From: Chara braunii
Taxonomy: Eukaryota; Plantae; Charophyceae
DNA: 64,000 nucleotides
Direction of reading: 5' to 3'
NCBI GenBank assembly: GCA_003427395.1
Contig: BFEA01000024.1
Span: 4,617,871 to 4,681,870 of the forward strand
Positions within the stretch are counted from its first letter, which is position 1. Every line of letters begins with the position of its first letter. Below, piece by piece: positions 32,143 to 60,880 of the stretch. The position numbers were made by a program, and so were the translations under genes. Below the pieces are notes generated by a model. That model was not told where the DNA came from, did not search any database, and saw only the letters and a list, made by a program, of their open reading frames with translations.

Positions 32143-32143
32143 A

Positions 32144-32668
32144 GAGGTTGAGGGCCGAGGGGTTGAGAGGAGTCTCGAAGTAACTGCAGTTATCTTTGTA
32201 GCACCGGGAGCTTGGACAAAAGTCGTAGTACCCCTGGTCCAAGGACAAGGGGGTGGGCTGGATAGGCTGCTACGAGAGGCAAGAAAAATGCGAAGAGAGT
32301 GGATAGCTGAGGTTCGAAAACGATTTAGGTTTGTGGCTGTAGGAAAGGAGAGGTTCGCGGGGGAGAAAGAACTTCCAAAGGCGTGTTATCCGTTGACTGT
32401 GAGGGTGTTGTCTTTCATATTCCTAGGAACCAACGAAGGGAAAATAGTGAGGCTTCTAGAGAGGGGAAGGAGTTTGGGATTACCCTTTAGGGCCCTGTGG
32501 ACGCTGTATACGCATTGCATCGATCAGGGTATCCCTCCTCGTGGGAAGCTTTGGGGTATTTTTAGGAGATTGGGGTCCCTAGAGAAACCCTTCACTCTTT
32601 CATCAGAAAGATATCGCCAGTGGGTTTTTAAAACGGCGTCGGTAAATGGTGAGGTTCATACTCAGTGA
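32144..32668 (+). CDS. Accessory ORF (family B), C-terminal part; N-terminus displaced to 57849-57787 by the inversion
   Basis: The frame is open back to the breakpoint. LEVTAVIFVAPGAWTKVVVPLVQGQ resembles LEIRATIFLSEDAWTEVWRGLVTGQ, and LYTHCIDQGIPP resembles LYTRCVDAGVPP of the next ORF. Confidence 0.65.
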   Translation, partial: EVEGRGVERSLEVTAVIFVAPGAWTKVVVPLVQGQGGGLDRLLREARKMRREWIAEVRKRFRFVAVGKERFAGEKELPKACYPLTVRVLSFIFLGTNEGKIVRLLERGRSLGLPFRALWTLYTHCIDQGIPPRGKLWGIFRRLGSLEKPFTLSSERYRQWVFKTASVNGEVHTQ

Positions 32669-33245
32669 GAACGGGGCGGTAGAGTCGATAGAGGTCAGTG
32701 ACAAGGGGAAAGTTTTGGTTCCAGGGGACCCTCGTGTGACGCCCTACTGGATGNGCGTTGAGAAAGGCGAGGTCATCCGAGGAGGTGCATACGTGTGGGT
32801 TAGAGCTCGTCGGCTTACCTGGAAGGAAGGAGTGCGGAGAGGAGGCCCCCCTGACCTCGGTCGGTTCCTAGAGATTCGGGCTACGATTTTTCTCAGCGAG
32901 GACGCGTGGACCGAGGTGTGGAGGGGTTTAGTGACTGGGCAAGTGACCCATACGGAGTACCGAGAGTCCGCGAGGCTGGTAGCAAATAACCTGGTGCTGG
33001 CCGATTACGAGGAAGGGACTTTCGAGTCACGGACTCTAGTGTCCTTCGCAGAGCCTGGTGAGGTCCCTCGTGCGTCTGGGGTCCTTCATGCGAACTTACC
33101 CCAATTCTTGACCAACCCATTCTTAAGAGACACGGAGGAAATAGTAGTAATAATACTTAGAGCGGCTCGGGAGTCCAGGGTGCGGGCTAGGGGTTTGTTC
33201 TGGCTCTATACGCGGTGCGTGGACGCGGGGGTTCCCCCGGGCTAG
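32646..33245 (+). CDS. Accessory ORF (family B), unknown function; probably continues by frameshift into the 33215-33415 frame
   Basis: 199 aa. The ATG overlaps the end of the previous ORF. Motifs IFLS.DA and EVPRA are shared with ORFs 57836-58597 and 34704-35276. Confidence 0.65.
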   Translation: MVRFILSENGAVESIEVSDKGKVLVPGDPRVTPYWMXVEKGEVIRGGAYVWVRARRLTWKEGVRRGGPPDLGRFLEIRATIFLSEDAWTEVWRGLVTGQVTHTEYRESARLVANNLVLADYEEGTFESRTLVSFAEPGEVPRASGVLHANLPQFLTNPFLRDTEEIVVIILRAARESRVRARGLFWLYTRCVDAGVPPG

Positions 33246-33312
33246 GAGAGTTGTCTGCCATATTCAGGAGGTTGAGAGAATTTGAGGGGGTCAAACGTCG
33301 TGGACGTCCCGT

Positions 33313-33741
33313 ATGCTCGCCTCTTCGGGGAAGAGCAGGAGACGAACCGGCGTGGGTACGAAGCCCGATGATAAGAGGGGTTCCGGGGACTCTCTGGCGT
33401 CAGTGGAGCCTATAGTAGATACTGGGGAAGTTGTCCTTGTCACTCTACCGAGAGTCAGGTTGAAAGGGCCACCGAGGACCCTCCAGAGAGAAGAAGGGAA
33501 AATCCGACGCGGGAAGGCTTTCGTGCGATTAGCAATGAGTTGCGAGGGGAGAGTAGTGATTGGTGAAGCCCAAATTTTCCTTTCGAAGGAAGGCCTGATA
33601 GAAATAGCAAGGAGCTTGAGGACTGGAAAAGACCCTCTCTGGGACACGCGAGCCGTAAGGAATCGCCTGGAAGAGCTCGTAAAAGAGGTGAAGCCTCGCG
33701 AAGGGTGCCAAGAAAAATATAGAGTGACCTACGGGGGTTAG
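33313..33741 (+). CDS. Accessory ORF (family B-related), unknown function
   Basis: AQIFLSKEG...GKDPL...RVTYGG parallels VEIFLSPDD...GKDPL...RVEYRG in 34704-35276. Confidence 0.55.
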   Translation: MLASSGKSRRRTGVGTKPDDKRGSGDSLASVEPIVDTGEVVLVTLPRVRLKGPPRTLQREEGKIRRGKAFVRLAMSCEGRVVIGEAQIFLSKEGLIEIARSLRTGKDPLWDTRAVRNRLEELVKEVKPREGCQEKYRVTYGG

Positions 33742-34703
33742 GAGGAGATACCTCAGTTCGCCACCAATGAGCCGGTGGGAGTTCCCCGTTTCATCTTTGA
33801 ACGGATCTACCTCTCAGGGTCAAGAGGGCGGTGGGAAGAAGGATTTTCATCCTGAGCCAGTTCCGGTTTACGAGGTCGGACCTCCATTCCTTGCTAACGT
33901 GGTGTTTCCGGGATTCCTATCGAGACGATTGGTCGACTCTAGAGGACTTGGGTTACACCTTTGAAGGGTGGGGTCGACACGCAAGGGAATCTAGGATATC
34001 GTGGAGATACTTGGGTAAGATCTGCGAAGGGGAGTTAGAAAGATTGAACCCCTCGGATCTCATTCGGATCGCGATTGCTTGTCGCCGACGGAAACTAGGG
34101 GATGAGCGAGCCTCACCTTGGCGAACTTGTGGGGTTGGAGAGGGTGAGAGAAGAAGTTCTCCGGATCCTTACTCTATGTTAGGAGGAAGAAAGGAGAGCA
34201 AGGCATAGGTCCCTAGCTAGGATCAAGCTACTGGAGACAACTGCGATCACAATCCTAGACGAGTTAACGATAGATCTTCTCACTCGGCGAGGGGAGAGGG
34301 TATGAGAGCTACGTTCGTCTCCAATAGGATTTGTTGGGAATTGGAGCCTTGCGAAGACGACAACAAGATTCGGGTCAAAGGAGGTCCGCCGGCTGGCCTT
34401 ACGGGAAAAGAAGGATTTGGACCACACTGGCTTTTCGGTTTACATTAGAGACGCAAGTGGGGTGAGGTCCTCAAGGACTTAGAGAGAACCGTTGCTGGAA
34501 GTGGAGAGAAGGTTTGAGGAAGACTCTAGGTATCTAGGAATCCCGCTCGCATCTAGGATACATCTTGTAGAGACCCGATTTTGGGATAGGACGGGAGAGT
34601 ACGAAGGGGCCTTGCGCCAGACGCTGCGCGAGGAAGGAGAGATCGATCGCGCTATGTGTGAGGACTCGCTGGTAGAGGCCGCCGCGAGGTTGGCCGGCGT
34701 GAG

Positions 34704-35276
34704 GTGAGGCCCCCAATGATTAGATACGATAGGGGGAACCCAGTGGGTACGTTAGAGAGGGCTTGGAAATCGGGAGAGAGGTATGGAGTAACCCTCCCCA
34801 TGATTAGAGGGGAAGGAGTGGTGTCTACAAAGTTCTTCAAGATCTACGGGCAAGAGACGGTGGTGCGGTTCTCGGTGGTCTCCAAAGGAGGAAGCCGCAC
34901 TAGGAAGGTTGAGATCTTTCTGTCTCCCGACGACCGACGATTCTTCGCAACCGAGTTAGCGGAGGGGAAAGACCCCCTAGGCATTGCCCGAAAGGCCCTA
35001 GACGGACTGCGGAGATTGAGAGGGGGCGGCACCGAGGGACGCGTGGTTGATCGAGTGGAATACCGAGGTAGGTCAGAAGTTCCAAGGGCGGCTCACGGGA
35101 GGACTTGGGAGATCCCAACCTGGGCCTACCGTCTACTCTACGCCGATGACGCAGCCGTGAGGAGGTTCCGAAATAGGGGACAGGTGATAGAGAAATTTCC
35201 GTTAGGTGAAGAAGGGGGGCACGGACTGTTCACCCAGTGTTGGGAATCGCAAGAAGACACAGACCTCGAGTGGTAG
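34704..35276 (+). CDS. Accessory ORF (family B-related), unknown function
   Basis: 190 aa. The start overlaps the stop of ORF 34492-34707 (GTGA). Contains IFLS, GKDPL and EVPRA motifs. Confidence 0.55.
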   Translation: MRPPMIRYDRGNPVGTLERAWKSGERYGVTLPMIRGEGVVSTKFFKIYGQETVVRFSVVSKGGSRTRKVEIFLSPDDRRFFATELAEGKDPLGIARKALDGLRRLRGGGTEGRVVDRVEYRGRSEVPRAAHGRTWEIPTWAYRLLYADDAAVRRFRNRGQVIEKFPLGEEGGHGLFTQCWESQEDTDLEW

Positions 35277-35585
35277 GCGCTCGTGGAAGAATTCATCAAA
35301 CCCCTGTTTCAGGGGCAACCTGGAGAGGTGGATTGGGCCCTGATCACGCGGTGCTCTCAAGAGGGGGTAAGGGGGGGTTCCGATCTAGAAATCGCCAACT
35401 TAGCCTTAGCAGCCCGTGAAGAAAAGTGAGTAAGGGACTCTTGGTGGACTGTGACTAGCGAGGAGTCAGAAGAAGATAGTGCGATCCAGGAATCAAGTGA
35501 GGGGGAGGGAGACTCAGGGGAAGAAGATGGTTCGGAAGGGAGTGACGATAGTGAGCGGAGCGACTAGAGGATAACGATAGGGTGC

Positions 35586-36990
35586 ATGGAGAGTGAGGTG
35601 GACGTCGGACTCTCTCGTCCACCAGAAACGACTGTGAGAAGGAGTGTCGAGAAGAGCCCCGAGTTAGGAGCTAGGCTAAGTAGGGTGACGAAAGAAATGA
35701 CCGAGGGTATAGAGTCGATAAGCAGGGCTGAGAGGGGCCCAGAAACGGCTTCAGGAGAAAGGCAAGCCTTGGAGGGACAAAGAGGTGGCGCGGGAGTGCG
35801 AGTACATAGGGAGGTGGAGCCGCGAGCGCCGGTGAGAGAAGGGGCATCCGAAGCCCCAAGGCACCTTCCCGTAGAGTCCCGATGGGCGGATCTAGTGGAC
35901 GCCGAAGCGAGGGTAGGAGAAGCTCCATAATTTTCGAGAGATAGGCCAGGGCATCTACCGCCTAAGAGAGAAGAAGAAGGGGGTCCGGATAGATGGGACA
36001 TAAGAAATAAGAGGTCGCCGGAAGCTGGCGGTAGGCCACGAAGGTGGGCTGAAAGGAGCCTCGAGACCGCCTCAGGAGAAAGGCAAGCCTTGGCGGGACA
36101 AAGAGTTAGCGCGGACGTGCGAGTACATAGGGAGGTAGAGCCGCGGGTGCCAGTGAGAGAAGGAACGACCGAAGCCTTGAGGGACCTTCCGGTGGAGTCT
36201 CGATGGGCGGATCTAGTGGAAGCAGAAGCGAGGATGGGAGAAGCACAAGAGTTTTCGAGAGGTAGGGTAGGGTGTCGACCACGTAGGAGGGAAGAAGAAG
36301 GGGGTCCGAATAGAAGGGACCTGAGAGAAGAGAGGTCGGCGGAAGCTGGCGGTAGGCCATGGAGGTGGGCCGAGAGGGAGTCGGATGTTGCATGGGCGCC
36401 CGGAGAGGTGATGGGGAGAAGTCCGGGGGTGGACGCCTGGAGAGGATTTAGGGGACAGGATCCCGCACGGTGGGAGACAGAGTGGCCGAATGAGAGAAGT
36501 CGCTATGGGGAAGAACCATGGGGACCCCCTAGACCCCGACCGCGGGTCGAGGAGCCGGATCCCTCTTGGTACAAGCCGTACGATCCGGTGATTGACGGGC
36601 CTATGGAGGGACCCTATTTCCGCCGTTACGACGACCGACGAGTTCCTTACTACGATGTCAACCTAGGCCTAGAGGCACTTTTCTTCGACGGACGTGATGT
36701 GACGGGATTCGTCAAGAAATGGGAGAGTTATGCTTACCGAAAGAGATTCTCCGAGAAAGAGTGGATAGATCACTTCATCCAGCACTCTGACCCGGAGTTA
36801 GACCCTGCAATCAGGGCTATCTACCCAACAGATGGGCGGTGGAGGACGTTCAAAAGCAGTTTATTACGGACTTTCGTGTGTGATGATTTGATCCCCACCG
36901 TAGAGGGCTTGCATCGTGTCACGAGGGGGGAACGAGAGAGCTTGGTGGCCTTCACCTGGAGGCTCAAGCGCTTGTCCCAAGCCCTAGTGG
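35586..36990 (+). pseudogene. gag, 5' part (in-frame 321-bp tandem duplication, premature stops)
   Basis: FFDGRDVTGFVKKWESY...GRWRTFKSSLLRTF capsid-like region. The HREVEPR...LPVESRWADLV block is repeated at 321-bp spacing. Interrupted at 36991. Confidence 0.75.
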
Positions 36991-39202
36991 CAGTGCTTGC
37001 AATCTTTATGTATGTTGTGAACTGGACCCGACCCAAATCTGGTTTGCAAAAAAAACTACAACAATACCCAGCCCAAACTGCAAAAAACAATTATGGCCAG
37101 CTGTCCAAACTGGATAATGGGTTTTTGCAGATTTTCCAAACTGCACCCGGCTAGCAACCTGAAAAAATGCCCAACTCCACCCAGCCGGACCAGACCCCAG
37201 TTTTACGCCATTTTGGTCGACCAGACCCACCGTGAACTGCCACGAACCGCCTTTTTCCTTCTTAAATATGAAATATCAATATGACACTTTTCTTTTTTTT
37301 AATTCAACCTTGGTTCCCCCATAGATCTTTATTTGTTTTTCAAGTAACTCAAACATCATTGAGAAAGGCATTCATCATAGAAATTAGCACCCCGGGATAG
37401 TGGTCTTACCCATGGATGTTTTCATATTAAAAAAAAAAAAATGCAGATTTTTCAACTTCACGCAACTTCACCAGGGTTGTCGAGCCCCGGCCCCGGGGCC
37501 CCGGCGGGGGTCCGGGGGTCCGGGGTTGGGCACCCCCAACCCCGGCTCCAGACCACCCCGCAAAAAAAAAATCAAAAAAAAAAATAAAAAAATAAAAATA
37601 AAATAAAATAAAATAGTGGGGGGTGCGTAGCGAAAGCGCGCACCACATGGGCTAAACCCCAAAAATGGGGTNNNNNNNNNNNNNNNNNNNNNNNNNNNNN
37701 NNNNNNNNNNNNNNNNNNNNNNNNNNNNNNNNNNNNNNNNNNNNNNNNNNNNNNNNNNNNNNNNNNNNNNNNNNNNNNNNNNNNNNNNNNNNNNNNNNNN
37801 NNNNNNNNNNNNNNNNNNNNNNNNNNNNNNNNNNNNNNNNNNNNNNNNNNNNNNNNNNNNNNNNNNNNNNNNNNNNNNNNNNNNNNNNNNNNNNNNNNNN
37901 NNNNNNNNNNNNNNNNNNNNNNNNNNNNNNNNNNNNNNNNNNNNNNNNNNNNNNNNNNNNNNNNNNNNNNNNNNNNNNNNNNNNNNNNNNNNNNNNNNNN
38001 NNNNNNNNNNNNNNNNNNNNNNNNNNNNNNNNNNNNNNNNNNNNNNNNNNNNNNNNNNNNNNNNNNNNNNNNNNNNNNNNNNNNNNNNNNNNNNNNNNNN
38101 NNNNNNNNNNNNNNNNNNNNNNNNNNNNNNNNNNNNNNNNNNNNNNNNNNNNNNNNNNNNNNNNNNNNNNNNNNNNNNNNNNNNNNNNNNNNNNNNNNNN
38201 NNNNNNNNNNNNNNNNNNNNNNNNNNNNNNNNNNNNNNNNNNNNNNNNNNNNNNNNNNNNNNNNNNNNNNNNNNNNNNNNNNNNNNNNNNNNNNNNNNNN
38301 NNNNNNNNNNNNNNNNNNNNNNNNNNNNNNNNNNNNNNNNNNNNNNNNNNNNNNNNNNNNNNNNNNNNNNNNNNNNNNNNNNNNNNNNNNNNNNNNNNNN
38401 NNNNNNNNNNNNNNNNNNNNNNNNNNNNNNNNNNNNNNNNNNNNNNNNNNNNNNNNNNNNNNNNNNNNNNNNNNNNNNNNNNNNNNNNNNNNNNNNNNNN
38501 GGGTGAAACCCCTACCCCGGCTTGGGCCCCGGGGATCCCGGGGGGGGGGGGGGGGGGTTGGGTAGCCCCGCGGGGGGGTTCTGAGGGTGAAACCCCTACC
38601 CCGGCTTGGGCCCCGGGGATCCCCGCGTGACAACGCTGAACTTCACCCATCTCCAATGTCAGGATTGCGTGCTCAGGGGCTTCAAAACTTCAATTTTCAT
38701 CTGTCTGCTGCCACAAGGCCGTTTCCCGCCCCAATGACATTAAAGTGACACTCCAAAATCTCACTTGTAGCCCCCATGGAACCGAAGTGACAGACTCCAA
38801 CATACTACCGCCGCCCTGGAACTGCCTTCCGCAGGTCTTCAAAAAGTGAATGCATAGAGCTTTCATTTGGTCCAGGTACATTGATATTATTTTGTTGAAG
38901 TTCTTTTTGTTCCCGGCCTTGCATATTTTTCATTCAGCCCCGTATGGGCAGCGGCACAGGGCTCGAGTGGAAAATATGAGCCTATATATACACACACACA
39001 TATATACATATATATTGGCATAAGGCCTGTACGGCTGACCCGCACAAATTCCGCACCCAGCTGTGGCCTGCAGCTGGGTCATGCCACCACCTGGCTGAAC
39101 CCCAGTTGCACCTGCATGTCCCAAATCTGCCCCTGGACCGGGCCTGTCGGGTGCAGCTGGGCCGAGCGGGTTGCAGCCACGGCCACCTGATTGCAGGCAC
39201 TG
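36991..39202. mobile_element. Non-autonomous hAT-like DNA transposon (contains an assembly gap)
   Basis: TIRs CAGTGCTTGCAATC / CAGTGCCTGCAATC (13/14). 8-bp TSD CCTAGTGG at 36983-36990 and 39203-39210. No transposase in the sequenced part. Confidence 0.92.
37672..38500. other. Assembly gap (others at 29133-29142, 43245-43900, 55763-55837, 62778-63271)
   Basis: Runs of N. Confidence 1.
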
Positions 39203-39439
39203 CCTAGTGGATAGGGGGTTGTTGTCCACCCGTGGTTAATGGACCCCAGAAAATTCGCCGAACTGGACAGCGAAGCTTGTAAACGAAATGTTAGCGAATT
39301 CGTGGTTTTTAAACCTCAATTTGTGCTTTGTGTTCATGAAGACGGAATCCATGTTTGCGAATTCGTGGTTTTTGAAACCCGAAATGTCCATTAATGTGAT
39401 GAACAACTATCTAAAGCCAACCTAGTGTTCTTCGAAATT

Positions 39440-41935
39440 GTATCCAGGTGTACATTCGGGATTTTCGCTATTGAAATCGCACTTCGAGATTTCGGGATTT
39501 TACTTAGCCGTTTCTCAAAATTATATCCAGGCGTACGTTCGGGATTTCGCTACCGAAATCGCACTTCGGGATTTCGAGATTTTACTTAGTCATTTCTCGA
39601 AGTTATATTCGCACGTGCGTTCGGGATTTCGCTACAAAAATCGCACTTTGGGATTTCGAGATTTTACTTAGTCGTTTCTCGAAAAATTATATCCGAACGT
39701 ACGTTCAGGATTTTCGCTACTGAAATCTCACTTCGGGATTTCGGGATTTTACTTGGTCGTTTCTTGAAATATCCGCACGTGCATTCGGTATTTCGCTACT
39801 GAAATTGCACTTCAGGATTTCGGGATTTTACTCAGCCGTTTCTCGAAGTTATATCCGCACGTGTGTCGGAATTTTACTACCAAAATGACACTTCAGGATT
39901 TCGGGATTTTACTTAGCCGTTTCTCAAAGTTATATTCACACATGCGTTTGGGATTTCGCTACCGAAATCGCACTTAAGGATATCGAGATTTTACTCAGTC
40001 GTTTCTCGAAAAATTATATCCGAACGTACATTCGGGATTTTGCTACCGAAATCACACTTCGGGAGTTCGGGATTTTACTTAGTCATTTCTCGAAATTATA
40101 TCCAGCCGTATGTTCGGGATTTCGCTACTGAAATCGCACTTCGGGATTTCAGGATTTCACTTAGTCGTTTCTCGAAATTATATCCGAACATACGTTCGGG
40201 ATTTCGCTACTGAAATCGCACTTCGGGATTTCGGGATTTCACTCAGTCATTTCTTGAAGTTATATCCGCACGTGCGTCGGGATTTCGCTACCGAACTCAC
40301 ACGTCAGGATTTCGGGATTTTACTTAGTCGTTTCTCGAAGTTATATTCGCACGTGCGTTCGGGATTTCGCTATCGAAATCGCACTTCGGGATTTCGGGAT
40401 TTATCTTAGTGATTTCTCGAAGTTATATCCGCATGTGCGTTCGGGATTTTGCTACCGAAATCGCACTTCAAGATTTCACGATTTTACTTAGTCGTTTCTC
40501 GAAATTATATCCAACAGCACAATCGTCACCGCTCAGAAAAATCGCCACCACTCGGTGTTTCACTAGGGAAACACACTTCGGGATTTTCGAGATTCACTTA
40601 GTTAAATCCTGATGTTATATCCCCCTACGATTCGGTGTTTCGTCACCAAAACACACTTCGGGATTTTCGGGGTTTCCTTAGCTGTATCCCATTGTTAGAC
40701 CTCCCATAAATTCAGTGTTCCGTTACCGAAACACACTTCGGGGTTTTCGGGATTTACCTAGTTGTATTCCGATGGTTTATCCCCCTAAGATTCAGTGTTT
40801 TGTTACCGAAACACACTTCGGGATTTTCTGGATTCACTTTGTTAAATTCCAATGTTATATCCCCCTAAGATTCGGTGTTTTGCTTGCGAAACACACTTCG
40901 GGATTTTGGGGATTCACTTAGTTAAATCCTAATGTTATATCCCCCTAAGATTCGGTGTTTCGTCACCGAAACACACTTCGGGATTTTCGGGGTTTCCTTA
41001 GTTGTATCTCACTGTTAGACCTCCCAGAAATTCAGTGTTTCGTTACCGAAACATACTTTGGGGTTTTCGGGATTTACTTAGTTGTATTACGATGTTATAT
41101 CCCCATAAGATTCGGTGTTTCGTTACCGAAACACACTTCGGGATTTTCGGGATTGTCTTTGTTAAATTCCAATGTTATATCCCCCTAAGATTCAGTGTTT
41201 CGCTAGCGAAACGCACTTCGGGATTTTCGGGATTCACTTAGTTAAATCCTAATGTTATATCCCTCTGAGATTCGATGTTTTGTTACCGAAACACACTTCG
41301 GGATTTTCGGGGTTTCCTTAGTTCTATCCCACTATTACACCCCCCACAAATTCGGTGTTTCGTTACCGAAACACACTTCGAGATTTTCGGGATTTACTTA
41401 GTTGTATTCCGGTGTCATATCCCCCTAAGATTCGGTGTTTCGTCAACGAAACACACTTCTTGATTTTCGGGGTTTCCTTAGCTGTATCCCTGTGTTACAC
41501 CCCCCACAAATTCAGTGTTTCGTTATCTAAACACACTTCGGGGTTTTCGGGATTTACTTAGTTGTATTCCGATGTTATATCCCCATAAGATTCAGTGTTT
41601 CATTACCGAAACACATTTCGAGATTTTCGGGATTCACTTTGTTAAATTCCAATGTTATATCCCCCTAGGATTCGGTGTTTCGCTAGCGAAACGCACTTCG
41701 GGATTTTTGGGATTTACTTGGTTAAATCCTAATGCTATATCCCCCTAAGATTCGGTGTTTCGTTACCGAAACACACTTCGGGATTTTCGGGGTTTCCTTA
41801 GTTGTATCCCACTATTAGACCTCCCACAAATTCGGTGTTTCGTTATTGAAACACACTTCGGGGTTTTCGGGATTTACTTAGTTGTATTCCGATGTCATAT
41901 CCCCCTAAGATTCGGTGTTTCGTTAACGAAACACA
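39440..41935 (+). repeat. Left tandem arrays: ~82-bp units (39440-40510), then 80-bp units with a 4-mer (320-bp) higher-order period (40550-41935)
   Basis: Core TTCGGTGTTTCGTTACCGAAACACACTTCGGGATTTTCGGG recurs every 80 bp, with four cycling variants. Confidence 0.95.
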
Positions 41936-42016
41936 CTAAGGGTGTAGGGGGAAGGAAGTGGACGTAATGGCAGAGGAGAAGTTTGGTGCGGTGGCAGGTT
42001 GGACAGATCACCTCTT

Positions 42017-42082
<66 letters not shown>

Positions 42083-48780: not shown

Positions 48781-48884
48781 ATCACTCAATGGATATGTTT
48801 ACCTTTGGTCTACCACATAGAGGACTCTATTCGTTATATATTCGGTGAAAAATATAAGGTCTATTAACCTTTTGTCATGTTGTC

Positions 48885-49740: not shown

Positions 49741-49804
49741 AGAGGGGCCTTGCCTAAGGGTAAAAACACAGGCTGGGTCCGAGACGTCTAAAAGCCAAGA
49801 GAAC

Positions 49805-52800
49805 GTGGCGGAAAATGGAGGAGGAAGGAGCGGCGACGACGACCAACCAATGGTCGATGCCAAAGTTGCGGAAGAAAAGAAGGAGGAGCCCACTTCACCC
49901 AAATCGCCAAGGATCACGGGGGCGAAAAAGTTCGAAATGAAATGCACCTTGGATGAGATCGACACGGTAGCTCCCCTTAGGAGAACCCTGATGCAGCCTA
50001 TGCAGTGCACACTTCTGGAATACCTAGCAGCCAGCAAAAGCGCTAGGGAAGAACTCCTAAGCATCACGAAGAAGGTAAGAGTCTCGCTCGTCGGAGGACC
50101 CACGGTACCGGGGGAGGGTCCAGCCAAGGAAAAAGTACAGTCCTCCCGAATTATTATGGATGAGCTGCCGACTAACTTCTTCTCGGGGGAGGAGGCCAAA
50201 AAGTTCTATGTATTAGGGAGCGACCAGCTAGAAGCGGTGGTGAGTGAGAAGAAGATGAGGGCTCTGGTAAACAATGGGTCCGAATCCACGGTATGTAGAG
50301 ACTCTATTGCCCGGGAGCTAGGCTTGGAGATAGGTAGGGGGGTATCGATGTCAATGGTCGTAGCGGATAACAAGCTACAACCGGCAGAAGGGGTGTGTCA
50401 CACCCCTGTGATCGAGGTTGCGGGCGTCGAGGCCTCGGTCCCAATATTTTCGGTGAAAGAGTATTCCTCCGAGTTGATCCTCGGTAGAACCTGGCTGAGC
50501 GCGGTTCACGCTACCACGGTTGACTTACCTGATGGAAGTCAGACCCTCTCCATCCAAAGTCCGGATGGAATCCGGGTGGTCCTGAAGACCGTGGACGCGC
50601 AAGATGAGCGGAACCGGACCAACATTCCTAGACGGAAGGGGAACCAATCGAGGGTATGCCAAGTCCGTCTGGAGGAAGCGCTCTTTACGGATAAGGAACC
50701 CCCGGGGGACCGATTAGAGGTCGAAGATGTCGGGGGCAGGATGGTGATCAACGGGATAGGGTACGAAAAGGAGGACGAGGAGGAGGAGTTCAGTGGATGT
50801 GTGAGACTGTCTTTTTTGGAGGAATCCCCCTAGTCGGCGGAATAAAGAACCACAAAACTGTGGCGGAAAAGGTGAAACCCGCCACGGTCAGCCGGGATAA
50901 AACGGGGGAAACTTCGATATCGGAAGAAGAAATCGCCGATATCATCAGGAAATGGAAGGAAACCGAAGGGCAGAGAATTACCGCAGACAGGTTAGCTAAG
51001 ATGGACATAGGGGACGGGAACCTCACGAACAAAGAGAGGGAGTTCGTAACGATGACCCTAAGGGGCTACGACAAGGCCATCGCCTTCGATGACTCGGAAA
51101 GGGGGAGAATCGACCCGAGATATGCTAAGCCAGCCCGGATGCATGCGATTCCTCACGTACCTTAGAAAGATAGACCCCAGTGGAAGTATGCTCAAAAGGA
51201 GAAAGAGGAGATAGTGACATTTATTAAAGAGAAGATAAGGACTTTCGTCGCAGAACCTTGCGAGAGTGCGTACTCTAACAAATGGTTCTTTCTGAGGAAG
51301 GGAGGGAGCGACAAGTTGAGGTGGATCCAAAATCTCCAAAGAACCAACACCGTGACCATAAGGGGCGTAGGGTCCATACCTGAAGCAGTTCTACTCACTG
51401 AAGGATCGGCTGGCCGCTCAATCTACTCAATCTGCGACCTCTTTTCGGGGTATGATAAGATTCCCTTGGACTACCGGGATAAGCACATGACCGCCATGCA
51501 TACGCCTTTGGGACTGGTCCAAATGATGGTGGTACCAATGGGGTGGACGAACGACGTGGCGGTGTTCCAAAGAGCCATGATTGCGGTCCTCAAGGAATTC
51601 ATACCTAGAAGGGTGAAAGTCTTTCTTAACGACTTCCCGATAAAAGGGTCAGTCGAACGGAATGAGACAGAGGTCTTTCCCGGGGTAAGAAAGTTCGTAG
51701 TGGGCCACATGAGCAATGTCAGGGATGTCCTGGTGAAATTAGACGATGCCAACCTTACGGTGAGCGGAACTAAGAGTCGCTGGGGCGTGTCGTCCATCAA
51801 GATATTGGGTTTCATTTGCGACAAGGATGGGCGGAGGCACGATCCCGGGGAATTAGAGAAATTGATGACCTGGCCATCGGCGCTCAAGTCGATAACGGAA
51901 GTTAGGCAGTTTCTAGGGGTGGTGGGCTACTGGAGGATCTTCATAAAGGCCTACGGTGAGAAAGCGGAACCCCTTAAACGACTCCTTAGGAAATCGGGAG
52001 GATGGATTTGGGGGGAGGAGCAGGCCGCGGCCATGGAAGCCCTAAAAGAGGAATTCCGCGAAGGTTGGCAGGTCCTACGAGTTCCGTTCTTCGAGGACGA
52101 GGAGTATCGCCCATTCATAGTTTCTACGGACGCGGGGCCTTACTCGTTAGGGGGCCTCTTATCTCAAAAGGATGGAGCAGGGAAGGAGAGACCGTTACGG
52201 TTCGAGAGTAGGACCTTGAACCCCGCTGAGCGAAATTATAGCCAGTTCAAAAAGAAAGTATTGGGAGTGTTGCATTGCCTGAAGGCCTTCAGCCATTACA
52301 TATACGGGCGACAATTTCTCCTAAGGGTTGACCCCACCGTAGTGGCAACAATCCTTCAAAAGGACTTCTCATTGACCAATCCGACCATCGCTCGGTGGAT
52401 GATACATATTAGACTACGATTATAGGGTCGAGAGGGTATCCGGGACCAAAAACCAGGTTGAGGACGGGTTGTCCCGACTTCCCATCCGGGAAGAGGACCT
52501 ACCTAAGCTCGAGAAAGTGACATTGTCGATGGCCAAGGGGGAGGTAATCCAAGTAGCGGCTAATAGGGTACAAGTGGCAGTACCCATCCGGGGAGAGGGG
52601 GGGACTCATAGAACCTTCCTCGCCAATCTCTACGACGGGAAGTACCGGGACATAGGGCTGTATTTAGCCGGTAGGGAGAGAGGGACCGAGAGAATCCAGC
52701 AAGAGGCGCTAAGATATTGCCTGCGAGGTGACCATCTCTTTAAGAGACCGACCAAGTTTGCGATTCTCATGAGAGTGTTGTGCGATCCAGAGGAAAGAAG

Positions 52801-53870
52801 AGCGATCATAGAGGAGCTGCACGATGGGGTCGTCGGGGTCATAGAGGGGTAAAGGGGACCTTCGATAAAGCCTGTAGGCTCTATTGGTGGGACTGGCAGT
52901 ACGCGGAGGTCGAAAGGTATTGCTCGACCTGCGAAGCTTGCCAAAAAAGGGCTACCGTTCGCTACAAGGAGCCCCTAGTTCCGTCACTACCCACAGTTCC
53001 GGGCGAAAAGGTCCACGTTGACTTGGTAACCATGCCTAAAGGAGTCGGGGGACTCCGGTACATAATCAACTTCCGTGACGATCTCACTGGATTCGTGGAG
53101 GCGAAGGCCATTAAGAAAAAGACGGTCGAGGAGGTGAGTGACTTTCTCCTAGAATACATCGTTAGTTACGGGTGTGTCGGAAAGATAGTCATGGATAGGG
53201 GGGCGGAATTTTTGAGCCAAAAGGTCAAGACATTGTTGGAAAAAACAGGAATCAGGGCGGTTTATACAACCGCCTATCACCCTCAAAGCAATGCGCCGGT
53301 AGAGAGAGGTCACCAAACGCTTGTAGATGCCCTGGCAAAATGGTGCAAGGGTCGCGCAGAGCAATGGCCGAAGTATTTGCGGTACGCGGTTTGGGCCGAC
53401 AACATCACAGTCAAATCAAGCACGGGATACCCCCCTTACACCCTTTGGTTCGGTAGGCATTGTCCCCTGCCCATCGAGTTCCACGTCGACACTTGGACAA
53501 GTGTCTCATGGAAACCAACATGACCAGGTGTGAGCTGTTGGGGGCCCGGATATGGCAAATAGCAGTAAATCTGGACGTCGGACTTACAGAGGCGGAAGCA
53601 AACATCGAGAAAGCGAGGGTGAAAGGGAAAGAAAGGTGGGACAAAAATCTACGGGTCCGACGAACGCCGATAAGGATTAACGACCTAGTTTTAATGTACG
53701 ATTCATCGTTAGAGAAGACCTGGAGCCGAAAATTGGCAAACTGATGGATGGGGACGTATAGGGTCCTAAAGAGATTGGATGAGAGGGCTTACATGCTCGC
53801 TGAATTAGATGGGAGTAGGCTACGGGACCCTATCGCGGGGGCTCGTCTCAAAATCTTCCGATCGAGAGGG
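49805..53870 (+). pseudogene. pol: aspartic protease, RT, RNase H, integrase (stops, frameshifts, catalytic D-to-N changes)
   Basis: ALVNNGSES...LILGRTWL; DLFSGY...PMGWTN...FLNDFPIKG; STDAGP...ERNYSQ; LHDG...H...YWW...CSTCEAC, HVDL, MDRGAEF, PVERGH; WMGTYRV. No chromodomain or additional RNase H seen. Confidence 0.95.
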
Positions 53871-54618
53871 ACCCTTGGGGAGGAGCCGAAGCGGGAAGAG
53901 AAGGAAGTTATTGACACGGAAGTGGCCGTTACCTACGAAAAGGGGGAGACCTCCAATCAAGGGGCCTCTTCTCGACCACCAAAGAGGGGGTTTAAGGTTC
54001 GAAAACTTACCCTACCAAAGACCCATGGAAAGAAGAAACGAACCAGAGAGGATGACGGTGACACAGACCGGTTAGAAAAATGCAGGCTAAGAGAAAGAAG
54101 GAACACCTCAAGGAAAACCTTGAGAATCAAACGGGAGAGAGAAGAGAGAAAACGAAAAAGGGAGAGGCGCGAGAAGAGGATGAGGAGACGGAAACGGGGA
54201 TAGAGTCGCTTGAGGAGAAAAGGGAGAGTGATGTACCATAGTCAGAGAAACATGTGTAGTACCATGGTTAGAGGGGACACGGATCCGAAAGAAAGAATGT
54301 ACCATAGTTAGAGAAACATGTGTCATGGGAGCAACGAGTCGTAACCCCAAAGGAGATATTGTACCATTGTTAGAAACGACCAGTGTCCCGGGGAGGGGTG
54401 CGCCGTGTGTCATGAAGAGTGCCGTAACTAGGCGATACGGTTAAGACTGGTAGGAAAGAAAAGGCGACCGTAATCTAACCGGAGGGTATGGGATGAAACC
54501 AACCATGGGAAAATGAGAGATACCTTCCCACGGTAACAATTGGGTGAGGGGCAAAGGTCAAAAAAGAAGGCTACGGGAATGCTCGCTCGAGACGGCGAGA
54601 AATGGGGTGTGGGCTGGT

Positions 54619-57600
54619 TGTCGGGCGACTGTCTACCAGCCGAAGACTTTTTTCTTTGAAAATAAAAAACGTTTTTTTTCCTTTTTTGCTGTTTTTGCGT
54701 GGTTTTGACGTATACATGCATGTGGATGTGGTGGTTAAGGATGTCCTTGGGCGTCCGAGTCTTCATAGTAACCCTTCGGCTGGCTGGTGTGGCTGTTCAA
54801 ACCTTGGTCGCAAGCTCGAGCACGCGGATCCCAAAGATCGGGGTTTCAGAGCCAAAACCAGAGAGCTGGGGGATGGTGGCCAGCCTGGAGACAGGTTATC
54901 AAAAATTTGGAAGGAGGGGACCTAAGGAAGGCAGGGGTGGACTACAATGGGCGGCATGTAATACTATGGCCGGGCACGACGAAGGCTGGTTACGCACGGC
55001 CGGAGGACTGCGGTTAAAGGAAGGAGGTGTCAAGCGGGACAGTCTGAGGCGAGCCGGAGAAGCACCAAGGACAGACGAGCTAGCCAGCGACAAGGAACTG
55101 ATCCAGGGGGGGAAGGAAAACTGCCTCACCCGTCGGCTGATCCCAGATGGGGCCAGGGTCGAGGAAACATGATGACAAAGAGCCGCGACCATGGGCCGGG
55201 CAGAAAGGGGGTCGAATCGAGAACTCGCACTGATGAAACCCGGGAGAAAAGGATAGAAAATGGGGGCCTCGACCACAGAAACGAAATGAGATCATTGGAA
55301 CGAAATCGGCCTGCACCAGGTGATCCGAGGATCTTCATGAGGCGGCTTCGTAACAGGGGTCAATTGCAAGGGCAATGCCAAGCTGGAAGGGAAAGAGCCG
55401 GCCAGGTGCGAGCTCGGCGAGCGAAGGCGAACGGACTAGCTCTGATGCAAGCACTCCAAGAACAGAAAAAGTGAACCGACAGACGAGAGTGCTAATGTAC
55501 CATGATCGAGGAATCGGCCAGGTGCACGCTCGGCGAGCGAAGGTAAACGGACTGGCTCTAATGCGAGCACTCCAAGAACAGAAAAAACGAACCGACTGAC
55601 GAGAGTGCTAATATACCATGATCGAGGAATCGGCCAGGCGTGCGCTCGGCGAGCGAAGGCGAACGGGCTGGCTTTGATGCGAGCACTCCAAGAACAGAAA
55701 AAGTGAACCGACTGACGAGAGTGCTAATGTACCATGATCGAGGAATCGGCCAGGTGAGCGCTNNNNNNNNNNNNNNNNNNNNNNNNNNNNNNNNNNNNNN
55801 NNNNNNNNNNNNNNNNNNNNNNNNNNNNNNNNNNNNNCGAGGAATCGGCCAGGTGAGCGCTCGGCGAGCGAAGGCGAACGGACTGGCTTTGATGCGAGCA
55901 CTCCAAGAACAGAAAAAGTGAACCGACTGACGGGAGTGCGAATGTACCATGATCAAGGAATCGGCCGGGTGCGAGCTCGGCGAGCGAAGGCGAATGGACT
56001 GACTCTGATGAGAGCACCCCAAGAACAGAGAAAGCAAACCAACTGACGAGAGTGTGAATGAACCAGCCAGGTGCACGCTCGGCAAGCGAATGTGAACGGA
56101 CTGATACAAGTGAACCAACTGACGAGAGTGCGAATGTGTCGTGATCAAAGAGTCGGCCAGGTGCGAGCTCAACAAGCAAAGGAGAACGGGCTGGCTCGAG
56201 TGCGAGCAACAAACGGGGCGAACGGCTCGACAGGTGTGCGAACATACCTAGATCGGAAATCGGCCAAATGCAAATTAATCCAGCAGAAGAGTAGACTGTT
56301 TTGGGTAGAACCGAGGTCAGGGAACGAGCCCCATGCAAGGTTGCTAAACGTGGGGAGGGAGATGAACGGGCAGTCCGGAGTGAGAGCGCGACCAAGATAG
56401 AAGGGAGCCAAGAAGCAAGAGAGCTTACGTCGAGATTAGGCTAAAACATGCAGAAGCGGAGAAACGCGCGCATAACCGGCGCAGTGACCAGGCAAGGAGG
56501 GGTTAGGACGGATCGCGGGTAAGAAGCGGGAAAGTATGGAAAATTTGGCGGATCGCCGGCGGGGATGCACGAAGAGAAGAGCGGGAAACTATGAAAAATT
56601 TTATGAACTATTGGCGGGTGACCGAGTGAGATTGAAGAGTGGTATGATTGGCAGAAGCGAAGGAGCGAGGATCGGAGCGAGGGGAAGAGAGAGGGATAGT
56701 GAGAATATATAAGGAAGAGAGCGGAGGAAGAGAAAAAAGGGGGGGGCGTACGAAGAAGGGGAACGCACGGGTCGAACGCCCGATAGAATCAGCGATCGGA
56801 GGCAGGAAGCGGCGGCTCTCCGGAGGGGCAGCGTTCGAGGGTTCGCGAGAAAGTTGTGCACCAGAGTAGCGAGGCGTGCGTGCCTCCGTGCCAGCGTCCG
56901 AGCAGGCAGACCAGGGAGACAGCGGCTCCTTGGGGTCAGAGTCGGGGAGCAAGAAGAGCGGACGTTAGCAGTTGGTGGAGGGACAGAGCAGAAAAAGTGA
57001 ACGAGAAGAGGCGGTGCGCGCGAGCGCGTCTTCTAGCCGAGACTAGCGCTCAATACGCACTCGCTCGAGAAAGAGAGAGAGGGAGAGAGAGAAAGAAAAA
57101 TGAGAGAGAGAGAGCGAGAGAAAGAGAGAGAGAAAAAAAAAAAGAGTGAGAGAGAGAGCGAGAGAAAAAGAGAGAGAGAGAGAAAGAGAGAGTGAGAGAG
57201 AGAGCGAGAAAAAGAGAGAAAGAGGGAAAGAGAGAGTGAGAGAGAGAGCAAGAGGAAGAGAGAGAGAGAGAGCGAGAAAATGAGAGAAGGAGAGTGAGGG
57301 AGGAAGGGGGAGGTTTCCTTCTCGAAAGGAGGGGGGGAGTTGGCGAGCTCTCGTGGCGAGGCTGCGAAGGGAGGTGATGGCGAAGTAGGTCTGGTGGTCA
57401 TGAGGTGATCCTTAAGGGAAGCGTCGGCCGGGCACTCGAGCGAGAGGTGGGGGCAAAAGGGCCGATGTTCGATAGCGTCGGCCACTGAGCCCTGCCGCGG
57501 GTGGGACTCACGAGGGACGTCAGCTGGAAGGATAGTCAGGGGACAGTAGTCTGGGCACCACTTTTGTTGCCTCGTCAGCGGTGGCGAGATTGCGCTCTCA

Positions 57601-57786
57601 TTGGTAAATCGAGTCTGCTGCTTCGATTCTCTTTCGGTGTGATGTTAGTGCATTTCCCTTCTCTCTCTGGACAACTATCACATGTCAAGCTACATTACAG
57701 TCTGAAAGTTTAAATTTCGTTGTTCCCCTGTCCCCTCCCTCCGCAATCTGATCGAGCCGCCCCGCGAAGGGAAGAGTTGGCGAGGG
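54619..57786 (+). repeat. Proximal part of the 3' LTR (inverted relative to the 5' LTR), with a 116-bp tandem array at ~55400-56160
   Basis: Starts TGTCGGGC after G-rich AATGGGGTGTGGGCTGGT. 56020-57786 is the reverse complement of 64000-62092. The start position is supported by homology with 1855. Confidence 0.85.
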
Positions 57787-57835
57787 GCTCTCACCGCCTT
57801 CTAAGGAGGATTCGACGAAGCGTCCCAGGTCTCTA

Positions 57836-58597
57836 TCAAGGAACACCATTCATTCTAAAACATTTTTTGGGGCACTCCGAAGACCCTTTTGTAGCCGTAA
57901 TCTTGTCCGCCCTCGCGGTCCCGAGTCGATTCCTTAAAGATTCCCACACGAATCCTGCAAGCTTTAATTCTGTACGGTACTGGGTTATCCACGCAGTATG
58001 TGTAGTACCAATGGAGCGACCTAAATGATAGATGCCACCCCCTTCCCGCACTATGGACCGCACAACCTTCTCGTACCGCTCCTCCTTTCCGCTTACCCTC
58101 CGGAAAACGAAGGATGGAAATATGGCCTTGACGCACCCCGTGGCGCGAGGGTACTCCTCGTCTCGAGCGCAAGTCACCCGCACCTCGATCGGTGGGCAGT
58201 AGCGAAGGGGCTCCGCCTCAAAGAGCTGCCTCAGAATCAGACCCGCTCGAGTCTCCCAATGATCCGCACGGTACCAACCTAGGACCAAGTTAGTGACGTA
58301 ATATACTCTGGCCTCCCTACTCAGATAGACCGTTCCTTCTGCACGGACCACTGTTCGTCGAGGCCTCTTTCCGTTCTGGGGCCTATTCCGAGAGCACCTG
58401 TCCCCCTCCCAAGTTCCTACTGCGAACCGCGCCCAAAGGAAAACCCCCTTCTCTAGCTCTAATCCTCTCTCGCGACCGGCCAGATATCTCTCAGTGCGAT
58501 GATCTAAGGGAACGGTAAAGCACTCCCTGTCCTTGCTTAGATCCACCTTCTCGATTTGAACCCCCTCCTCGTCAGTACCTTCTATGATCCTAACCAT
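57836..58597 (-). CDS. Accessory ORF (family B), 253 aa, unknown function
   Basis: MVRII..., GVFLWARF..TWEG, GTVYLSREA and EEYPRATG align with MVRFI..., GAYVWVRA..TWKEG, ATIFLSEDA and GEVPRASG of 32646-33245. Confidence 0.7.
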   Translation of the reverse strand: MVRIIEGTDEEGVQIEKVDLSKDRECFTVPLDHRTERYLAGRERGLELEKGVFLWARFAVGTWEGDRCSRNRPQNGKRPRRTVVRAEGTVYLSREARVYYVTNLVLGWYRADHWETRAGLILRQLFEAEPLRYCPPIEVRVTCARDEEYPRATGCVKAIFPSFVFRRVSGKEERYEKVVRSIVREGGGIYHLGRSIGTTHTAWITQYRTELKLAGFVWESLRNRLGTARADKITATKGSSECPKKCFRMNGVP

Positions 58598-58955
58598 TCC
58601 CCTCGACTATCTCCTCGATGATTTGAACTAGTGTTCTCCAACCGTCCGAACCGTCAAGGTACGCCTCCGGAGTAGTAGGGGCAGGCCGCTCCCCTCGCAA
58701 GTACGTCCGATACCCTAGCGAGTAGAAGTACTTAATCTCGTAGGCTCCCAGCAGTTCCCTCTCGAGCTGCGTGTGATTGACAGCTTCTTCCCAACTATCC
58801 GAAAAGCCTGCCCCTCTATCTGCACCCTCTTCTATATACAAAGCTATGTCGAAATCGCCAGTCCACCAGTAAAAATTGTAGCACCACATGTCCACTCCTC
58901 CTCGATCACCCACACTAATCCCCGCAAGTTCAACTTCTAGAGCCCTCAAACTCAT
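58590..58955 (-). CDS. Accessory ORF (family A), 121 aa, unknown function
   Basis: Paralog of the adjacent ORF (WEEA...YE.KYFYSLGYRTY.RG.RPAP...AYLDGSDGWR.L). ATGA start/stop overlap at 58955-58952. Confidence 0.7.
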   Translation of the reverse strand: MSLRALEVELAGISVGDRGGVDMWCYNFYWWTGDFDIALYIEEGADRGAGFSDSWEEAVNHTQLERELLGAYEIKYFYSLGYRTYLRGERPAPTTPEAYLDGSDGWRTLVQIIEEIVEGNG

Positions 58956-59270
58956 GGAGTTGCCGCTCTCACTATTCTCTCTACGACCCCTATTAGCACC
59001 CTCCAGCCGTCCGATCCGTCGAGATAGGCGTCCGAAACTACCGGGGCGGGGCGACCTCCCCTGGGGTAGGTTCGGTAACCTAAAGAGTAAAAATATTTAA
59101 ATTCATAGCCCCTCAACTCCCCCCTTGCACCGCGAGAGTGACCTATCGCTTCTTCCCATCCACGAAGGAAATCCTCCCCTTGTCCATAGTCGAAATGTGT
59201 AGCACCATACGTCAATATCCCCGCTCGTACACACGCTAATCCATTCCGGGACGGTTTCTAAGCTCATGCA
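58952..59270 (-). pseudogene. Accessory ORF (family A), frameshifted paralog
   Basis: The C-terminus lies in the 58952-59215 frame. The N-terminal ISVCTSGDIDVWCYTF (compare ISVGDRGGVDMWCYNF) lies in another frame. The 5' boundary is approximate. Confidence 0.65.
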
Positions 59271-59877
59271 ATATAATCAAAAAATTCTTCCACTTTCTTT
59301 TGGCCACTCGAGAGACTACCTCTATCCTGCAAGGAGAAGATGCCTGTGAGCTCAGAAGGATCAAATGGACCAGAGAAGGAACGTCGTCCCACTCGGCTAC
59401 CTTCCTGTCCTCCCCCGCTGAGAGGCCCCTTCCCACTCCTGGTACAGAGACTAGCCGCGGACATAGGTTATCCTCGAGGAAGGGTGGCAACCCCCTCCCC
59501 GGAGTCGGACCAAAGTCACACACCCGGGCCCTATGTCCCCCATTGAACCGACCCCTAGTCCTAAGTTAGCCTAACCGGTACCACGTCCCTACTCGGCCCA
59601 CCTCGAGCGTGGAATTACCCAGGTCCCAGGACTTTAATCCACCTATAAATCAAGAATCACTAGCCTACCTAGTCCCACCCCATTCTCCTTCTCTCATCAG
59701 GAACTCTTCATGCTTCGTTCGCACCTTCCATCTCGCCACCGTCTGACTCTTTTCTCTCTTCGAATCTCAAGACTTTGATCGGGGTCCTCAAAGAAAAGGT
59801 GAGGAGAGTAGAGATAATCAAGAGAAGCACTCAGGTTTATCGTTTTTGATTACGTACCTCGTAGTCTTTGCCTCCTT

Positions 59878-60420
59878 TTAGAACTCGTTCTCATAGTCCC
59901 AATAGTCCCCAAGGTCCGAGTCCGAAAAATCGGCAAGACACCGGTCCACCCAGGATTCGGCCTCCGACCCCTCGTCCAAAGAACCCCACGTATCTCCCAC
60001 TTCTCTATCCCCTTCGCTCACAATGGCTGTTGTATTTCTCTCGTCCCCTTGTCCCGGCGCCCGAAGCACCACTCTCTCTGCCCCCAAGTCCCGAACGGTT
60101 CTGGCTCGAGAATTCCCCTCCCAAGTGGGAGGCGCCTCTCTCGCGTGCCCCTCACACAACCCTCGTGGGTCGAGAATCGAAACTCCAAATCCCCCCGGCG
60201 AAACCCTTTCCGGAACGGGAGTTGCACCCTGTACGGGCACCCTCCACAGTCCGTGCGGGTCGAGGATGTTGGGTAACCCCCTTGGATCCCAAATCGACAA
60301 TGGCCCCGAACCCCCTCGAATCCTCCTTCTTTCCACTCCTTCCTCCCCACGTGCGGACCCGCTCACACTATTTTCACAAACGGCTCTTCTTCCCACTTGT
60401 TTGTTGCTTTTCACCCTCAT
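59878..60420 (-). CDS. First ORF after the PBS, 180 aa, acidic C-terminus, unknown function
   Basis: ATG-initiated. Internal repeat (ILDP.GL twice). Ends DFSDSDLGDYWDYENEF. No recognisable domain. Confidence 0.4.
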   Translation of the reverse strand: MRVKSNKQVGRRAVCENSVSGSARGEEGVERRRIRGGSGPLSIWDPRGLPNILDPHGLWRVPVQGATPVPERVSPGGFGVSILDPRGLCEGHAREAPPTWEGNSRARTVRDLGAERVVLRAPGQGDERNTTAIVSEGDREVGDTWGSLDEGSEAESWVDRCLADFSDSDLGDYWDYENEF

Positions 60421-60877: not shown

Positions 60878-60880
60878 ACT

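Follow-up and report, generated by a model that had tools for sequence, protein, structure and literature searches.

A decayed Ty3/gypsy retrotransposon of Chara braunii with nine accessory ORFs ahead of gag, likely translated by leaky scanning

A 64,000-nucleotide stretch of the genome of the charophyte Chara braunii (assembly GCA_003427395.1, contig BFEA01000024.1, positions 4,617,871 to 4,681,870 of the forward strand; hereafter the window) carries a decayed Ty3/gypsy retrotransposon of about 22.8 kb, which belongs to a multi-copy family and has been disrupted by an inversion and by a 12 kb insertion. Nine accessory open reading frames (ORFs), apparently abutting for the most part, separate its primer binding site (PBS) from gag; eight of them are conserved at the protein level, and their sequence makes it likely that ribosomes translate them by leaky scanning along a single long RNA. 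The element has two long terminal repeats (LTRs) of about 4.3 kb each around an internal part of about 14.1 kb, a PBS that begins 3 nt beyond the end of the 5′ LTR (60877-60860, minus strand), a likely polypurine tract before the 3′ LTR, and Pfam domains in gypsy-type order, namely protease (PF13975), reverse transcriptase (RT; PF00078), RNase H (RH; PF17917/PF17919) and integrase (PF00665). The PBS is probably of a tRNA-Asp type, similar to that of Athila. Gag is indicated by related proteins of a sister family, which match Retrotrans_gag weakly (E 0.016).

Self-comparison pairs the LTR pieces 56020-56748 with 64000-63272 (93.7%), 57104-57786 with 62775-62092 (94.0%), 30681-31731 with 60881-61926 (90.5%) and 31557-32142 with 61442-62024 (94.5%), and because these pieces align only when segment 32143-57786 is flipped, that segment has evidently been inverted. 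With the inversion undone, the order reads 5′ LTR, PBS, cassette of accessory ORFs (60859-57787, then 32143-35585), gag, pol, polypurine tract and 3′ LTR. An earlier note on this DNA, made from its letters, had proposed this layout, and both the LTR pairing and P0029, a gene model from another copy that is uninterrupted at the inversion and at the gag insert, bear it out. ORF B2 runs whole across the breakpoint in P0029 (B2 N-terminus against P0029: z 12.8, 0 of 300 shuffles), and in run X4, 14 contigs continue beyond 57789 with differing letters that, read by eye, are B2 coding sequence. The breaks cost the element about 67 nt of LTR and about 33 codons of B2. The two LTRs differ by a Kimura two-parameter distance of 0.03-0.07; the start of the 5′ LTR and the target duplication fall outside the window.

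The nine sense ORFs of the cassette (o1, A1-A2, B1-B5 and C; Table 1) are roughly 105-310 aa long. The earlier note had counted about ten; the cassette of extra ORFs is real, and several of the short ORFs proved to be fragments of longer, broken ones. Thus B5 extends over 34716-35567 in P0001 and P0025, through two stops of this copy, and indels in other copies sit where A1, B1, B3, B4 and C shift frame here. The two paralogue families that had been recognised, A with two members and B with five diverged ones, both held up. A1 and A2 share 58% identity over 72 aa (E 2e-29), and the N-terminal piece of A1 is also similar to A2 (z 9.3); in family B, four strong pairs chain all five members (B2-B3 z 16.8, B1-B3 14.1, B4-B5 9.6 and B3-B4 6.2, with 0 of 200 shuffles each), the other pairs being weak (B1-B2 z 2.9, B1-B4 z 2.5, the remainder below 2.5). 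The tail of B4 (33801-34305) shows no significant similarity to that of B5 (z 1.0). Almost complete tiling by ORFs had also been claimed, and stop-free stretches of at least 70 aa do cover 0.85-0.89 of the sense strand, but they cover 0.73-0.76 of the antisense strand too (shuffles 0.35); as the antisense strand is nearly as open, tiling alone is weak evidence.

The leader of about 440 nt and some 600 nt between o1 and A1 look non-coding. Block 59269-59724, within the latter, reaches a summed contig depth of 1035-4788 in run X1, against 144-1101 over A1-B1, and this several-fold excess over the adjoining ORFs argues that it is common to many more elements. It is likely a packaging, promoter or splice signal; it has no Rfam match (nothing rose above threshold in 57787-62100) and its folding energy is ordinary (z -0.42).

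Table 1. Features of the Ty3/gypsy element in the window, in the order of the element with the inversion undone.
Feature	Position	Strand	Remarks
5′ LTR	60881..64000	-	start beyond window end; 86-87 bp tandem repeats, GA runs; ends GACA
Primer binding site	60860..60877	-	
Leader	60421..60859	-	1 ATG vs 3.0 expected; candidate splice donor near 60497
ORF o1, 180 aa	59878..60420	-	stop-free in this copy; no relative found; 1-nt indels inside in other copies
Likely non-coding block	59269..59724	-	candidate splice acceptor near 59325; likely cis signal
ORF A1	58952..59267	-	frameshift near 59181, where other copies have 45 extra bases
ORF A2, 121 aa	58590..58955	-	stop-free; own ATG overlaps A1 stop (ATGA)
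ORF B1, ~245 aa	57855..58597	-	frameshift near 58043; start overlaps A2 end by 8 nt
ORF B2, 5′ piece	57787..57849	-	severed by inversion
ORF B2, 3′ piece	32143..32668	+	73-75% identity to P0028, P0029
ORF B3	32646..33371	+	open to 33245 here; 73% identity to P0030; likely longer in other copies (indels at 33242, 33293)
ORF B4	33368..34305	+	B domain 33385-33830; frameshift near its start, stop at 33741
ORF B4, C-terminal half	33801..34305	+	inferred across further breaks, from indels and junction
ORF C	34302..34707	+	broken here; by profile unrelated to A or B; 72% identity to part of P0029
ORF B5, ~283 aa	34716..35567	+	acidic tail; two internal stops in this copy
gag, 5′ part	35586..36990	+	321 bp duplication (35725-36377), one stop
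Later insert in gag	36991..48876	.	80/82 bp satellite arrays, inverted orientation; assembly gaps
gag, 3′ part	48877..49849	+	
pol: protease, RT, RNase H, integrase	49850..54203	+	several frameshifts and stops
Likely polypurine tract	55016..55027	+	
3′ LTR, first part	55028..57786	+	start inferred from purine tract and TGTC
3′ LTR, last part	30681..32142	-	on far side of inversion

Comparison between copies and paralogues shows purifying selection on A, B5 and C, as the earlier note had supposed for the cassette ORFs. Over 180 codons, B5 and its counterpart in L001, a 1222 bp record, differ at 37, 32 and 89 first, second and third codon positions, which gives a ratio of non-synonymous to synonymous differences per site (pN/pS) of 0.23 (95% interval 0.17-0.30) and, as substitution rates, a dN/dS of about 0.09. 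In the remaining five frames pN/pS is 1.12-1.40, except for the antisense frame with the same codon boundaries, where it is 0.38. Between A1 and A2 pN/pS is 0.33 (0.22-0.47), with dS saturated. Differences by codon position are likewise concentrated at the third in two sets of ORF C pieces (2/3/13, p 0.002; 11/15/33, p 0.0009) and in the extension of B5 (9/8/29, p 0.0001), and the acidic tail of B5 lacks such a bias (12/13/20, p 0.28). Eight of the nine accessory ORFs are conserved at the protein level, the ninth, o1, having no second copy for comparison.

The cassette is family-wide, and many different copies of it exist. Two DNA runs gave 2368 and 2548 contigs aligned on 32143-36990 and 1920 and 1853 on 57787-61200; 38-50% of the cassette contigs are less than 90% alike, and summed depth over the cassette, which is no copy number and comes from runs that may be the assembly's own source, is similar to that over the gag core. 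Gene order is retained in P0029, which reads B2, C, B5 tail, gag and protease, and the models P0001 (B5) and P0018 (pol, 85%) are separated by two locus tags, with contigs of equal length.

A second gypsy family of Chara carries the same domain. Among 22 relatives of the RT-RH region, 20 are Chara braunii models, the best with 88% identity, and the other two reach 38% and 30%. P0031, P0032 and P0033 represent a family that has a gag of another kind, preceded by three B-like repeats in tandem. When the frames of the window, 909 in all, are searched with a profile built from these repeats alone, B1, B3, B5 and B2 take the top four places in that order and B4 comes seventh, and the B profiles of the two families match with an HH-suite probability of 97.4 (E 9e-12), so that the similarity claimed for family B stands at the profile level as well. 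In a tree from which RT rows with fewer than 200 aligned residues were excluded, and which included no named lineages, the RT-RH of this second family is sister to that of the element's own (97/94 support). Its B repeats form one clade of their own (99/98), with deeper nodes weak and B1 on a long branch, and this single clade points to separate amplification of the B repeats in the two families. The sister family is apparently undescribed in the literature as far as it was searched. P0032 also has a B5-like piece ahead of a sister-family gag. At the RT active site (51487-52425), the relatives P0003 and P0018 read F-L-D-D-F-P-I-K-G, with one Asp changed in this copy, and the sister family reads Y-I-D-D-N-P-I-K-G; the former motif is, we believe, unusual for plant gypsy lineages and reminiscent of fungal Ylt1-type elements.

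The main mechanistic clue, missed in the earlier note, is a depletion of ATG together with closely set stop/start junctions. The ratio of observed to expected ATG is 0.46 in 32143-35585 (17 vs 37, P 2e-4), 0.65 in A1-B2 (P 0.075), 0.33 in o1 (P 0.057) and 0.45 in L001 (P 0.038), and is not lowered in gag and pol (1.15-1.58) or on the antisense strand (1.0-1.4). ATG is the second lowest of the 64 triplets in the cassette, where control triplets are not depleted. Where the frame of an ORF piece is known, internal ATGs number 14 in 3,989 nt of cassette and 79 in 4,860 nt of gag-pol, a roughly fourfold depletion that affects in-frame (6 vs 29, p 5e-4) and out-of-frame ATGs (8 vs 50, p 4e-7) alike. 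Internal Met is likewise scarce in cassette proteins of other copies (3 of 1746 residues, against 43 of 1599 in their gag-pol). Internal ATGs that this copy has at 32288, 59464 and 59543 are missing from nearly all others. All eight starts from A1 to B5 have a stop triplet 0, -4 or -8 nt away, and at eight of ten starts position -3 is a pyrimidine, on which ground we take them to be weak.

Such features are described for two systems with known leaky scanning. In rice tungro bacilliform virus (RTBV) and badnaviruses, ORFs I, II and III are reached in this way, with short overlaps or fused stop and start codons, internal AUGs cleared and weak starts, according to the sections cited (PMC5902531); for bicistronic genes of the green algae Chlamydomonas and Auxenochlorella, the cited text gives a weak context of ORF1, start-codon depletion before the next ORF and leaky scanning (PMC11291117). 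Like the viruses, the element has accessory ORFs upstream of its core polyprotein, with internal ATGs depleted, though not absent, in this decayed copy. Unlike them, it is an LTR element with an integrase, known here from sequence alone, and it has about nine upstream ORFs over 6.5 kb where they have two over 0.9 kb; the algal cases, in turn, are chlorophyte host genes with two cistrons and not a mobile element with about ten. Because ATG depletion, seemingly weak starts and ORFs that appear to abut match these features, we think that leaky scanning is probably how the cassette is translated. The 40S subunits would scan from the cap, a fraction being captured by each weak start, and the others would scan onward, meeting few ATGs within each ORF, until they reach the following start and, at the end of the cassette, gag. 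At a capture of 10-20% per start, 13-43% would get past eight or nine starts, which is arithmetic only. The conserved block preceding A1 may also be the point at which the RNA starts or to which it is spliced, and o1 would then be bypassed.

Several observations weigh against this reading. RTBV leaky scanning, as the cited section reports it, was shown over 900 nt (PMC5902531), and the 6.5 kb here would be about seven times farther. This copy still has 38 ATGs across the 6.5 kb, four of them together at 59731-59683, and a stop within 8 nt of an ATG is common anyway, being found at 39 of 64 pol ATGs. The junctions seen directly are A1/A2, A2/B1, C/B5 and B5/gag, the rest being read across frameshifts, and the start context preferred by Chara itself may differ from the one by which the starts were called weak. 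The 1746 residues of cassette protein counted for Met are not independent, as five of the nine stretches are B5 homologues. The B repeats of the sister family are Met-rich (57 of 1426, 4.0%), and since they are not Met-poor the B domain does not need a leaky-scanning mode. On the side of conservation, the selection tests cover A, B5 and C, with o1 and the B4 tail outside them, and distant B pairs have pN/pS 0.59-0.76, values biased by protein-guided alignment. RNA reads do not establish expression: run X6 gave 167 and 135 reads, mostly less than 95% alike, on both strands and tracking DNA depth (rho 0.75), run X5 gave 0 and run X7 gave 4.

The same junctions could be used for termination and reinitiation, possibly aided by a cassette protein like TAV in caulimoviruses, a reading that draws on the stops 0, -4 or -8 nt from all eight starts A1-B5, on ATGA at six of nine cassette starts (background 0.29), on the 8-nt gap between C and B5 that is preserved in L001, and on the use of such overlaps by non-LTR elements and caliciviruses mentioned in part of PMC5902531. 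We regard it as rather improbable, for reinitiation needs no loss of in-frame Met or out-of-frame ATG, yet both are lost. The calicivirus reinitiation motif TGGGA is found 40-90 nt upstream of none of the nine starts, and no 5- or 6-mer is clearly prominent before them; this calicivirus-type feature is thus absent, other types of reinitiation remain, and reinitiation and leaky scanning could act together. Unlikely, too, is that splicing or internal transcription starts supply the RNAs from which the cassette and gag are translated, and that the ATG depletion merely clears long leaders. One mRNA per ORF would leave unexplained both the depletion inside every ORF and the tight spacing of stops and starts, and no RNA joint is listed for X5, X6 or X7, where depth is very low. 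On the other hand, sequence near 60497 resembles a splice donor, and sequence near 59325, which lies 55 nt upstream of the A1 start, resembles an acceptor; block 59269-59724 is common to far more contigs than its flanks; and splicing is known for barley Bagy2, as cited in PMC7264820. A single splice into A1 is compatible with leaky scanning also.

It seems very improbable that the element now carries the cassette neutrally, as a captured stretch or one that was useful in the past, with ORFs that are by-products of a purine-rich composition; for A, B and C the evidence already refutes this for the most part. In its favour, this copy is disrupted at numerous points, long stop-free stretches cover 73-76% of its antisense strand, and 39 coding variants among the 40 best supported comprise 26 non-synonymous and 13 synonymous ones; these are mostly this copy's own changes, as expected from its own decay, and are no test of selection. 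Such a reading may hold for o1. It is at odds with a dN/dS of about 0.09 between copies, with the third-position bias, with paralogues that are alike only as protein and with the occurrence of the same B domain ahead of gag in a sister family that shares only 45-49% identity in RT-RH. A further proposal concerns what family B is: a PUR/PC4/Whirly-like domain binding single-stranded nucleic acid, and hence a chaperone for long RNA or cDNA. The idea was recorded before the Foldseek search, which, with a poor B5 model (pLDDT 44.6), ranked Borrelia Pur-alpha 1, 3, 5 and 9 and MRP1/MRP2 13 and 33 (E 0.3-0.6). Nevertheless we find it doubtful: it failed the profile test, in which comparison with 29 bacterial PUR proteins scored 13.1 (probability 0.33) and was beaten by 7 of 60 decoy families, and no PUR protein is among the listed Foldseek or VIA rows for the better B3 model (core pLDDT 70-83). 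The lead is unsupported.

The predicted core of B3, residues about 40-135 (pLDDT 70-83 in most blocks), has the order beta-beta-beta-alpha-alpha-beta. Foldseek gave no match to the B3 model at E 0.001 in PDB or BFVD, and its best VIA match, chimallin (Z 6.2, root-mean-square deviation 3.5, 87 aligned), falls short of the Z 7-8 that models usually reach even when they have no clear match. No cassette ORF was matched in Pfam, PHROGs or PDB sequences. Family B has 2 matches by word search and 10 by HMMER over 1.84 billion proteins, 8 of them named Chara braunii and three (P0031-P0033) from the sister family, and all named relatives of cassette proteins are Chara braunii gene models. For A2, no relative was found among 11 candidates of 66-212 aa or in viral contigs; the ESM Atlas gave no usable match for A2 or B5, which shows neither absence nor novelty. 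One match, L002, has 36% over 43 residues, and another, L003, runs antisense to a gene of a bacterium and was regarded as a chance match. The 19-residue hydropathy maximum is 0.29-1.22 in nine ORF pieces and 1.68 in B2, and with no clear transmembrane segment and no family match the cassette proteins are not env-like. Our guess, a tentative one, is that they may be small soluble accessory proteins made on one repeated alpha/beta domain, binding the element's RNA or host silencing factors, and that tandem duplication may have widened their targets or dose. The part in anti-silencing or host interaction that the earlier note suggested is likewise a guess.

Among known elements, the Tat clade, which in REXdb includes Ogre and Retand, has an extra archaeal-type RNase H, placed between RH and integrase in Ogre and Retand, and the extra ORF of Ogre lies 5′ of gag. 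Here no Pfam family, and so no additional RNase H of the Tat type, was matched at E up to 1 in 52529-52852, and fewer than about 100 codons separate the end of RH from the integrase zinc finger. No cassette ORF matches PF10536, the plant mobile domain, which is frequent in Ogre, not universal (57% of elements). The Athila 3′ env-like ORF or ORF-1 (PF03078) has no Pfam match in ORFs 53508-55172 or the cassette, and no Pfam family, hence no chromodomain, was found in 53508-53744 or 53748-54203 of this degraded copy, a domain that some chromoviruses lack. The element is a Ty3/gypsy element without the Tat/Ogre, Athila and chromovirus features examined, set apart by features alone. Caulimoviridae have a movement protein and neither integrase nor LTRs; the element, which has both of the latter and no movement-protein family in the Pfam scan of its ORFs, is not one of them.

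Ogre itself (REXdb non-chromovirus OTA Tat Ogre), for which the section cited gives the additional RNase H between RH and integrase and the plant mobile domain (PMC6317226), differs in that the present element has nine 5′ ORFs with tandem paralogues and neither of those domains. Large gypsy elements with extra coding of mostly unknown function are described in the cited parts of PMC6431247, PMC11963269, PMC5408684 and PMC7264820, among them Burro/GYPSM1 of planarians, Retand, Athila and bdelloid elements. In Burro the known domains lie mainly in one huge polyprotein, and here the ORFs are separate; in Retand and Athila the extra ORFs lie between pol and the 3′ LTR and are often antisense or env-like; those of the present element lie at the 5′ side on the sense strand and show no clear transmembrane segment. 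Extra coding in LTR elements, as described in those parts of the literature, amounts to one or two ORFs, mostly 3′ of pol, or to one giant polyprotein (PMC6431247, PMC6317226, PMC11963269, PMC7264820). The claim that no gypsy lineage with a multi-gene 5′ cassette has been described survived a literature search, although the Chara genome supplements, Repbase or Dfam may list the family. Nor was leaky scanning in an LTR element found described in the literature, the Chara genome paper and repeat databases aside.

The usual view of LTR retrotransposons is that they express gag-pol and no more than one or two additional products. A bolder reading, which we hold possible though somewhat short of probable, is that of a virus-like polycistronic charophyte gypsy genome, in which leaky scanning across 6.5 kb would read about ten cistrons from one RNA, the strength of each start determining how much of its protein is made. 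This genome would encode an accessory domain of unrecognised fold, multiplied separately in each of two sister families, perhaps under an arms race against silencing by the host. If so, polycistronic leaky scanning would extend from the two or three ORFs of pararetroviruses and the two of green algae to about ten, and the cassette would be a natural test of how far scanning can reach. It adds three protein families (A, B and C) without known relatives outside Chara models, and the two sister families with domain B, one Met-poor and one not, offer a contrasting pair. Some Chara 'hypothetical proteins' are spliced-together cassette pieces: several gene models among P0025-P0029 fuse cassette ORFs to parts of other elements (RT, integrase or DUF659), and these fusions are likely annotation artefacts.

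The 12 kb insert in gag (36991-48876) has no clean target duplication and no long non-repeat ORF; its satellite arrays, at 39455-41937 and 44668-48730, stand in opposite orientation and have 240-320 bp higher-order repeats. Elsewhere in the window, a 194-aa open frame at 7877-7296 (minus) is similar in its middle to the N-terminus of P0032 (E 9e-9), has no B profile match and may come from the accessory region of another element. Another gypsy pol, not related to that of the element and with the canonical YMDD motif in its RT, lies at 24270-28030 (minus), with a PHD-like cysteine stretch ahead of its integrase zinc finger (25238-26059) and a 54 bp tandem array at 27992-28874. A 240 bp part of the element's 3′ non-coding region (54619-54856) recurs at 1855-2093 with 76% identity, which suggests a conserved 3′ signal of a related family. 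The LTRs of the element contain tandem arrays of 116 bp and 86-87 bp units, at 55399-56065, 31219-32110 and 61417-61992.

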